A DNA stretch of 13,230 nucleotides from a virus (lineage: Duplodnaviria > Heunggongvirae > Uroviricota > Caudoviricetes), in IMG/VR virus record IMGVR_UViG_2563366990_000013; one strand, written 5' to 3'. A program made the position numbers. Positions 12,001-13,230 of this stretch are shown piece after piece. The first letter of the stretch is position 1. Each line of letters starts with the position of its first letter.

Positions 12001-13230
12001 CAGCGACGCATTCCGGTAATTCTGGTTGGCGTTAAACTCCCTTTCCTGCAGTGTGTAATTGCGGTCATCAACTTTGGCTCTGTAATCAAAGTTCCGCTGA
12101 TCAACGTCTTTATTATGTTCAAACTGAGACTGCGCAAATTCAAAATCGCGCTCGTTATTTTTCTGTTGCTGAGCAAGCTGTGCTTCTCGCAAACCAAGCT
12201 CCTTACGACGGGTCATTGCCTGGTCAACAGTGCTGAATCCGGCAAGTAACCCCTGTGCAAATCCGCTCATTCACCACTCCTTAAAACAAAGAACCAGCAA
12301 TGCCGCCAATTACTGCACCAGCAACAGCGCCAACAGGACCACCAACGGATGCGCCAATAGCCGCCCCCGTACCAATGCCCGTACCGATATTCTGTTTTTT
12401 CTGAGCTTTCTGTTGAGCAGCCAGTTGTTTATTTGATGCCTCAATCTCTGTGCGTCGTCTGTCTGCGTCACTTATTCCCTGTAATGCCTCACGCCGCGAC
12501 TGATTTGCAATATCCAGTAAACCGTATCCCATATTGCCCCCTTACACTGCCACCAGTTGTCCGCCAACACTCAGTTTCTGTCTTGCCGGTGCAGAAGCCC
12601 CCGTCAGAATATTCATCTGGCGATCCTGTTCGGCTTCACGGATACCATTTTTCGCGCCAGCAATTGCCAGGGCATTACGTAACCCCAGCGTATTACTGTC
12701 GGGATTATCCGGGCGGCTTACCCCGTATCTCGCCATCTGGTTATCCTGCGCCATCTGCGCTGTACGGAGACTGGAAGTGGCAAGGCCGCCCACCCGGGCA
12801 AGCTGTGCATTCATCAGGCTGTTGTTCTCGCCAAGGTCAGCCAGCCTTGCCACGCGGGGCAAATATCTGGTTCGCCAGTCGTCGTATTGTTGGCGTGTCA
12901 GCGCTGCTGACGTCTGCCAGTCACCCTGTGGACGGGCAGCTCCGGTATAACCGTATCTCGCAAGTGTTTCGTATTTACCGTACTCCATAATCACAGTCTC
13001 CAGTTCTGAGCCTGATGCTGAATGGCATTAGCGCCGGTGCCAGGTGTTTTAGCACCGCCACTTCCTCCGCTACCGCCAGCCTTATGCATCGCATATGCAC
13101 CTGCCGCACCCAAACCAGCGCCAACAAGAGAGGCTCGCCCCTGCTGTTTCGTAAACGCAGCCTGTGCGTCCGATTTAGCTTTTGCCAGACTGCTGTCTGC
13201 CAGCGAGTTAAAACTCTGTAACGCATCCGC

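Follow-up and report, generated by a model that had tools for sequence, protein, structure and literature searches.

How the DNA of short-tailed phages that spread Shiga toxin (Stx) genes crosses the bacterial envelope is an open question, and the giant ejection protein is itself listed as an open question in the structure paper of one such phage, phi24B (bioRxiv 10.64898/2026.04.10.717836). A locus that raises this question lies in a 13,230-nucleotide (nt) stretch of viral DNA (IMG/VR record IMGVR_UViG_2563366990_000013; the whole of this stretch is referred to here as the window), which is the late region of an Stx podophage of the 933W/Sp5/phi24B type. It encodes an 83-amino-acid (aa) protein ending in a glycine zipper, the product of one of five conserved members of a gene cassette, the others encoding proteins of ~218, 150 and 420 aa and a giant protein of 2795 aa. 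What does so small a protein do in such company?

The 83-aa protein is proposed here, with moderate confidence, to be a low-copy accessory subunit of the ejection-protein module, acting by membrane insertion or helix pairing. The strongest evidence on its role is its context, a fixed slot in the cassette. If packaged and ejected, the protein, being small and genetically dispensable, would provide a tool for asking where and how the DNA conduit meets the membrane. The family is widespread, mislabelled and tied to a medically important phage group, and the present results correct its annotation as 'bacteriocin', a label on account of which one proteomics study has already dismissed the protein as contamination.

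A small gene in a fixed slot among virion-protein genes

The 83-aa open reading frame (ORF) reported by the first-pass annotation of this DNA is confirmed on the minus strand, which that annotation had not stated: the translation is exactly as quoted and ends in ...GTGIGTGAAIGASVGGPVGAVAGAVIGGIAGSLF, followed by the stop codon at 12281-12283. The gene is separated from both neighbours by 9-10 nt, its pairwise ratio of non-synonymous to synonymous substitution rates (dN/dS) against orthologues is 0.08-0.14 (dS up to 0.72), and its product matches PHROG 594 over its full length (E=1.8e-44, 151 bits, residues 1-83 against positions 1-85 of 85). Because of these features and of its Shine-Dalgarno sequence, the ORF is a genuine gene under purifying selection. 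The layout of its junction with the upstream 150-aa gene (Table 1) suggests translational coupling with that gene.

A word-indexed search returned 37 relatives, mostly from E. coli, with Vibrio members at 48% identity and a metagenome member at 29%, while a profile search of 1.84 billion cluster representatives returned 530 matches at E<=1e-3 and 105 at E<=1e-10 (at least 105 family clusters, counted at 50% identity). Nearly all family matches are 71-98 aa long and align end-to-end. The first-pass annotation had held that homologues lacking the zipper would speak against its reading; a search for them found the zipper kept in all full-length homologues. In three entries, P0046 (220 aa), P0084 (442 aa, without the zipper) and P0154 (150 aa), the small protein is joined to the downstream product by read-through or deletion, and these look like frameshifts, assembly errors or decayed prophages, not true fusions; P0046 and P0084 were not used as Rosetta-stone fusion evidence for this reason. 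PHROG 594 is catalogued without an assigned function, a literature search for the Sp5 orthologue ECs1240 found no functional study of it, and the 83-aa protein is not mentioned in a study of phi24B lysogen expression (PMC3342100) or in a proteomics paper on phages of enterohaemorrhagic E. coli (PMC12502783).

The order of the cassette is the same in all 26 loci fetched by way of the small protein, 13 of them from close queries and 13 from members only 30-50% identical: a gene for 193-243 aa, one for 117-196 aa, the zipper gene for 77-101 aa and one for 403-563 aa. Where the contig reaches far enough, most loci then show a giant ORF of 1341 to >2871 aa, which is often truncated where the contig ends. 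This order recurs in Vibrio phage 252E42.2, where the small gene is also named 'bacteriocin'; this phage was reached through the LPD38 region of the giant protein, in a survey independent of the small protein that covered three phages only. Insertions, reverse-strand or unrelated, interrupt the cassette at points that differ among loci, either separating the ~420-560-aa gene from the zipper gene or separating it from the giant gene, and include Arc/KilA-N/ANT, PIN-domain and small unknown genes (loci L002 10268-11699, L006 11992-16159 and L059 3040-3831); the order is unchanged in spite of them.

No cassette protein readable in the window has an uncharged membrane-type stretch longer than that of the 83-aa protein. 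Neither the 150-aa nor the 420-aa protein contains a hydrophobic window, and the only other uncharged glycine-zipper segment in these proteins is a short one in the giant protein, which shares its core with the zipper of the 83-aa protein (Table 1). A six-frame translation of the window gave a single further stop-free run of at least four Gly residues at i+4 spacing, a 5-Gly run in the giant protein. Zipper-plus-basic segments are present in the N-terminal part (~aa 140-560) of most related giant proteins (loci L002, L005, L006, L011-L014, L016, L017, L020 and L035), and co-variation between the zippers of the small and giant proteins, judged by eye in a few loci, was not convincing.

At the profile level, residues 5-61 of the small family weakly resemble residues 130-186 of the ~218-aa family, in its C-terminal module (hhalign probability 72%, E=3.5e-5), a resemblance hinting that the small protein may have arisen by partial duplication of that module. 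Part of the module lies at 12991-13230 in the window and the similar stretch of the small protein at 12350-12520, both on the minus strand.

Virion proteins of close relatives and architecture of the zipper

The orthologue in phi24B, gp49 (gene at 47590-47841 of HM208303), is identical to the 83-aa protein at 79 of 83 residues (95%). In a study combining cryo-electron microscopy (cryo-EM) of phi24B with its virion proteome (Bubenchikov et al. 2026, bioRxiv 10.64898/2026.04.10.717836), purified virions yielded gp49 at 6 counts in the batch digest and 13 overall. In the same study, the other four cassette products were abundant virion proteins missing from the cryo-EM map: the giant gp47 (746 counts, about 19-35 copies), which the authors propose as an ejection protein, gp48 (421 aa; 179 counts, about 30-55 copies), gp50 (148 aa; 83 counts, about 40-73 copies) and gp51 (~218 aa; 82 counts, about 22-41 copies). 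The authors discarded gp49 as a contaminant owing to its functional annotation as a 'bacteriocin' homologue. Its signal level played no part in this dismissal, and the annotation invoked fails all tests applied here.

The counts-per-length formula of the authors gives about 3-11 copies of gp49, or 35 with the adaptor gp62 as reference, a protein of 245 aa that yielded only 6 counts although the structure shows 12 copies of it. Of the tryptic peptides of gp49, only 4 fall within the detectable size range, its C-terminal half forming a single hydrophobic peptide of 37 residues. Two further unannotated products appear in the phi24B proteome table, an 83-aa ORF at 16908-17156 (6 counts) and a Bor homologue.

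The neighbours of the small gene have also been studied genetically in Sp5, in which marker-free in-frame deletions were made across the phage (Mondal et al. 2016, PMC5155283). The text of that study names ORF79 (421 aa) and ORF80 (2793 aa) as essential, their mutants packaging DNA and being non-infectious, and reports a strongly impaired deletion of ORF76 (218 aa); ORF77 (148 aa) is outside the defective mutants that the text names.

Both halves of the 83-aa protein described by the first-pass annotation are present. The charged N-terminal half, residues 1-48, holds 9 K/R and 6 D/E, giving 15 charges and a net charge of +3, and across 145 family members the conserved positions of its helix recur at heptad-like spacing along one face (A16, L20, A23/24, E27, R30, N34, L37 and Q40). 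The last 35 residues contain no charged residue and 12 Gly, arranged as a first arm (G52/G56/G60), a turn (G64-G65-P66), a second arm (G68/G72/G76/G80) and a C-terminal LF. Gly occupies eight successive i+4 positions (52, 56, ... 80), a run that 200,000 shuffles of these 35 residues reproduced only 26 times, and this zipper is kept throughout the family, in which G52, G56, G60, G64/65, P66, G68, G72, G76 and F83 are the conserved tail positions. Cys is absent from the 83-aa protein and from all 145 members.

The two arms vary differently in length. Pro66 of the GGP turn is present in 142 of the 145 members, and in 81 members it stands 17 residues from the C-terminus (standard deviation (SD) of this distance, 2.7), whereas the first arm ranges from ~14 to 32 residues (SD 6.1), insertions and deletions being confined to this arm and the loop. 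Because the second arm is fixed, the turn is conserved and length variation is limited to the first arm, this pattern indicates that the zipper probably forms a helix-GGP-helix hairpin, not a single long tail anchor. The zipper is also only marginally hydrophobic: the best 19-residue Kyte-Doolittle mean is 1.69 in the 83-aa protein, the family median is 1.45 with only 29% of members at or above 1.6, and a crude Hessa sum for the segment is ~ +5 kcal/mol. The 'textbook' tail-anchored zipper of the first-pass annotation is therefore a real zipper, for which a single-span tail-anchored transmembrane (TM) helix is unlikely given its hydrophobicity, its turn and its unequal arms. An AlphaFold2 (AF2) model of the monomer, built from a 60-sequence alignment, is a single long helix with a mean predicted local distance difference test (pLDDT) score of 66 and is uninformative on topology.

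Proposed role, comparable systems and alternatives

In the proposed mechanism, a few copies of the 83-aa protein (roughly 3-11) would be packaged alongside the other internal proteins, and the N-terminal helix would bind a cassette partner or oligomerise through its conserved face. Its marginal hydrophobicity could keep the protein soluble in the capsid, yet allow it to partition into a membrane after release. Following release through the tail, the zipper hairpin would insert in a membrane of the host envelope, or zip onto the zipper of the giant protein, and so help to anchor, seal or stabilise a trans-envelope DNA conduit. The first-pass annotation had suggested a pore or conduit subunit for ejection; an ejection-linked subunit fits best with a cassette of virion proteins and with an orthologue in virions, and an obligatory pore or conduit conflicts with the deletion of the Sp5 orthologue.

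Among the closest known systems is the ejection class of podophages (T7 gp14, P22 gp7 and N4 gp52, which are outer-membrane pore subunits), which shares with the 83-aa protein a late-operon slot directly followed by genes for a mid-sized and then a very large internal protein, as in the N4 order gp52 (150 aa), gp51 (644 aa) and gp50 (3500 aa) and in the T7 operon gp14-gp15-gp16. The likeness extends to a membrane-type helical element and to an orthologue that is found in virions yet unseen by cryo-EM. In N4, gp52 and gp51, encoded in the equivalent slots beside the giant virion RNA polymerase, carry hydrophobic helices of their own and form channels in bilayers (PMC13434306). However, the 83-aa gene is an extra cassette gene that N4 is without, its product has one hairpin in 83 aa where gp14-like proteins have 2-5 predicted TM helices in ~200 aa, and T7 gp14 is reported to be essential whereas the 83-aa orthologue is dispensable in Sp5. 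Alignment of the small family to N4 gp52 by hhalign gave a probability of 0.2%, indicating unrelated proteins, and membership in the T7 gp14-like/N4 gp52-like class is ruled out by this absence of homology, by size and by dispensability in Sp5. A profile search of the Protein Data Bank (PDB) found no significant relatives of the 83-aa family, and sequence searches for the 420-aa and 150-aa proteins found none there either. The 420-aa protein gave no sign of the 'leg' fold of T7 gp15 or N4 gp51 (AF2 pLDDT 63.6; Foldseek against PDB, nothing at E<=0.001); its homologues among the 120 matches listed are all from E. coli, at identities of at least 77%.

A zipper of this kind carried in cis is found in phages of the Bcep22/GP4 type, which like the window encode a cassette with a giant LPD38-bearing protein. 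The first cassette protein of Ralstonia phage Gerry (23F_00025; 277 aa, L060 1303-2136) is homologous to that of the window (hhalign probability 96.4%, E=1.3e-9), and gp70 of Burkholderia phage Bcep22 (L061 14538-15533), which carries the annotation virion structural protein, resembles it in sequence and occupies the same position, homology having been scored for Gerry alone. These proteins end in zippers, ...GAGLGSMVGSLGGAALMVF in Gerry and ...AGLMGGLGTIAGAGIMAF in Bcep22, with the terminal residues ...AF or ...VF, that are shorter than the zipper of the 83-aa protein and fused in cis. Neither Gerry nor Bcep22 has a stand-alone member of the small zipper family, and the Stx-type ~218-aa proteins are without a C-terminal zipper tail. 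This complementary distribution of cis and trans zippers is suggestive and is not demonstrated homology. Bcep22 gp70 also has a hydrophobic N-terminal extension, in which its record notes a potential signal peptide.

The hairpin motif has further parallels in proteins that leave virions or are proposed to do so. One is cargo protein C1 (gp45) of crAss001, whose motif GASVGGPIGAIVGGVVGL (residues 120-150) is nearly identical to GASVGGPVGAVAGAVIGGI of the 83-aa protein. This is the best PDB match of the family profile and is not significant (E=0.14). A TM helix of gp45 has been predicted at residues 136-158, overlapping the motif region, and the protein is stored in tail and capsid, its N-terminal part lying in the tail barrel and being proposed to be ejected first and to insert in the membrane (Bayfield et al. 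2023, PMC10172136). However, gp45 has 842 aa and contains the motif as a segment, its remainder being unrelated, and the match is driven by composition. Five to eight tandem copies of the hairpin motif are carried by two tape-measure-like proteins, P0076 and P0159.

The two-TM (2TM) glycine-zipper outer-membrane lipoproteins (SlyB, OsmB, YiaD and YfgH) likewise have two short GxxxG helices joined by a turn, their domains oligomerise into membrane rings (11-mers in SlyB), and the best Pfam and NCBIfam matches of the 83-aa protein fall in that class. They differ from it in that its scores are below the cut-offs and in that it has no signal peptide or lipobox, no Cys, no periplasmic domain and a place in a phage structural operon; its membership in the class is ruled out by the sub-cut-off scores, the missing lipobox Cys and the polar N-terminus. 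Depolarising glycine-zipper toxins and class II bacteriocins are small zipper peptides that enter membranes from outside the cytoplasm, a possible mechanistic analogy, from which the 83-aa protein is set apart by its lack of leader, exporter and immunity gene, by its sub-threshold Pfam match and by its virion structural context.

Compared in this way, the protein looks like a stand-alone mini-subunit bearing a membrane-type element that other ejection systems hold in cis. A more specific model, offered tentatively and possible rather than probable, is that the family constitutes a hitherto unnoticed membrane-insertion subunit, encoded as a separate protein, of a distinct ejectosome type centred on giant polyvalent proteins. 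In this model ~6-12 packaged copies would, once released, form a SlyB-like zipper ring or collar that anchors or seals the conduit at a host membrane and supplies in trans the hydrophobic element carried in cis by N4-, T7- and Bcep22-type proteins. Such a subunit could have been overlooked in proteomes owing to the propagated 'bacteriocin' misannotation and the undetectable 37-residue tryptic peptide.

Several observations weigh against a role in ejection. The Sp5 orthologue ORF78 (ECs1240, 83 aa) is outside the nine non-infectious and two low-infectivity mutants named in the text of the deletion study, the primers for which specify a single-gene in-frame deletion leaving only M-G-Y-S-L-F (PMC5155283). 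As far as that text reports, Sp5 still forms plaques on K-12 and lysogenises it when the orthologue is missing, and because this deletion is outside the defective mutants an essential channel role is excluded; a modest defect may still exist. In the phi24B preparation the gp49 signal is low and stands alongside the outer-membrane proteins Lom and Bor, so that co-purifying membrane debris is a possible source. No structure locates the 83-aa protein within the particle, and the AF2 model, in which the helix at residues 3-45 has a pLDDT of 71-78 and the zipper 52-63, is silent on topology. The zipper tails of Gerry and Bcep22 score nothing with the hidden Markov model of the small family, and the gp45 and tape-measure matches represent apparent low-complexity resemblance, not demonstrated homology.

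The main alternative is a cassette factor that stays out of the virion, a late protein, membrane-associated or chaperone-like, that acts in the producing cell, for example by shielding the zippers of the giant or ~218-aa proteins or by tethering internal proteins during procapsid assembly, the virion peptides then being membrane debris. The low gp49 counts, the presence of Lom and Bor, the Sp5 deletion mutant, viable as far as the text of that study goes, and the lack of a place for the protein in the phi24B cryo-EM model are all consistent with this explanation, and synteny and the giant-protein zipper fit it equally well. It is nevertheless considered rather unlikely: the gp49 signal per residue exceeds those of gp62 and gp54, both accepted as structural by the authors, all four neighbours are packaged, the equivalent Bcep22-type zipper tail is on an annotated virion structural protein, and marginal hydrophobicity argues against stable insertion in the inner membrane of the producer.

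The first-pass annotation had also raised a holin-like or a superinfection-exclusion role, and neither is borne out. Glycine zippers can form pores, and a small late protein with a glycine-rich hydrophobic segment could be a holin-like or lysis-timing protein that permeabilises the inner membrane of the producer. This is very improbable, since no lysis gene adjoins the 83-aa gene in the window or in ArgO145, its neighbours encode virion proteins, the protein ends in a hydrophobic arm without a charged C-terminal tail and reaches no more than the Kyte-Doolittle maximum given above, and the Sp5 deletion mutant, as far as the text cited reports, forms plaques. Its place in the structural cassette is kept in very divergent phages, down to about 30% identity, and the lysis cassette of Bcep22 is elsewhere.

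A superinfection-exclusion or lysogenic-conversion membrane protein expressed from the prophage (a moron) is improbable to the same degree. The protein is small and of membrane type, the phage is temperate, and Lom-like and YadA-anchor genes are nearby; however, a scan around the gene returned 0 promoter-like sites, where chance alone would give 2.4, its GC content is that of its neighbours, and it is translationally packed with both flanks. Obvious morons in related loci are reverse-strand inserts at other points, whereas the zipper gene never moves, even in divergent phages, and PADLOC returned nothing meaningful for the 83-aa protein, with sub-threshold zipper matches at most.

A secreted toxin of the class II bacteriocin or microcin-like kind, implied by the NCBI product name, is scarcely credible. 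The name occurs in RefSeq entries for phages and prophages of the Stx type, as well as in at least one record of a Vibrio phage; in the entry for ArgO145 the 83-aa product is 'bacteriocin' and the giant protein is an 'LPD5 domain-containing protein'. The Bacteriocin_IIc match (PF10439) reaches 19.5 bits against a gathering cut-off of 27.1 and covers the zipper only (residues 47-80). Gly-zipper_YMGG (PF13441; 25.7 bits against 28.9), Gly-zipper_Omp (PF13488; 15.9 against 25) and the NCBIfam models PdsO (40 against 152) and YiaD_Gzip_OmpA (15.9 against 175) also fall short, and no curated Pfam or NCBIfam model scores above its cut-off. The N-terminus (MGYGLLDIANQSRREALQGISDADRRR...) has no double-glycine leader or GG processing site, the first GG being G64-G65 inside the zipper, and no exporter or immunity gene lies beside the 83-aa gene in the window or in 27 related loci, where its neighbours are virion-protein genes. 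Because the Pfam match is below its cut-off and leader, exporter and immunity gene are absent, the label is unsupported beyond a sub-threshold match to a low-complexity zipper.

Other features of the window

Every long ORF of the window is on the minus strand, in the transcription order ~218-aa gene (last 79 codons), 150-aa, 83-aa, 420-aa, 2795-aa, 414-aa and 181-aa genes (Table 1). Region 10900-13230 matches 186 phage records, nearly all of short-tailed Stx-converting phages (Sepvirinae), with 91% identity over its full length to ArgO145, in which the cassette genes close the late structural operon, and up to 96% identity over 86% of the query to phiSTEC1589-Stx1c.

Table 1. Positions of the 83-aa gene, its parts and neighbouring features in the window
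Feature	Position	Strand	Basis and remarks
Coding sequence of the 83-aa glycine-zipper protein, stop codon included	12281..12532	-	Translation; PHROG 594; dN/dS; orthologues Sp5 ORF78/ECs1240 and phi24B gp49 (vb_24B_46)
Residues 1-48, polar charged N-terminal helix	12389..12532	-	Conservation over 145 members; AF2
Residues 49-83, uncharged glycine zipper	12284..12388	-	Composition; Gly spacing; sub-threshold Pfam matches Gly-zipper_YMGG, Bacteriocin_IIc and Gly-zipper_Omp
Junction with upstream gene: TAA of 150-aa gene (12542-12544), GGGGG Shine-Dalgarno (12537-12541), 4-nt spacer, then ATG	12533..12544	-	Sequence reading
10-nt gap to 420-aa gene, containing its GGAG Shine-Dalgarno	12271..12280	-	Sequence reading
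First cassette gene (~218 aa), C-terminal 79 codons	12991..13230	-	Translation; ArgO145 and phi24B annotation; proteome data; runs past window end; orthologues Sp5 ORF76 and phi24B gp51
150-aa cassette gene, upstream of 83-aa gene	12542..12994	-	PHROG 596; orthologues Sp5 ORF77 and phi24B gp50
420-aa cassette gene, downstream of 83-aa gene	11008..12270	-	PHROG 601; orthologues Sp5 ORF79 and phi24B gp48
Giant 2795-aa polyvalent protein	2535..10922	-	Pfam LPD5, LPD1, MuF_C and LPD38; orthologues Sp5 ORF80 and phi24B gp47
Short glycine zipper in giant protein, aa 408-424, GTVFGAAMGAPFGAVAG then YRGRR	9651..9701	-	G-x-P-x-GAVAG core as in 83-aa protein
Terminator-like strong hairpin, GCCCGAC...GTCGGGC then T8	10943-10962	-	In the 85-nt gap from 420-aa gene to giant gene
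414-aa gene, downstream of giant gene	931-2175	-	YadA-like membrane anchor PF03895, E=1.1e-15

The start of the 150-aa gene is a mechanical ORF call at GTG (12994), which would make it overlap the stop codon of the upstream gene; annotated orthologues start two codons later, at ATG (12988), and are 148 aa long. The hairpin upstream of the giant gene may attenuate expression of that gene or may be read through under Q antitermination. The 414-aa protein has a hydrophobic, signal-peptide-like N-terminus and looks like a phage-borne adhesin of the trimeric-autotransporter type, its gene possibly being a lysogenic-conversion gene.

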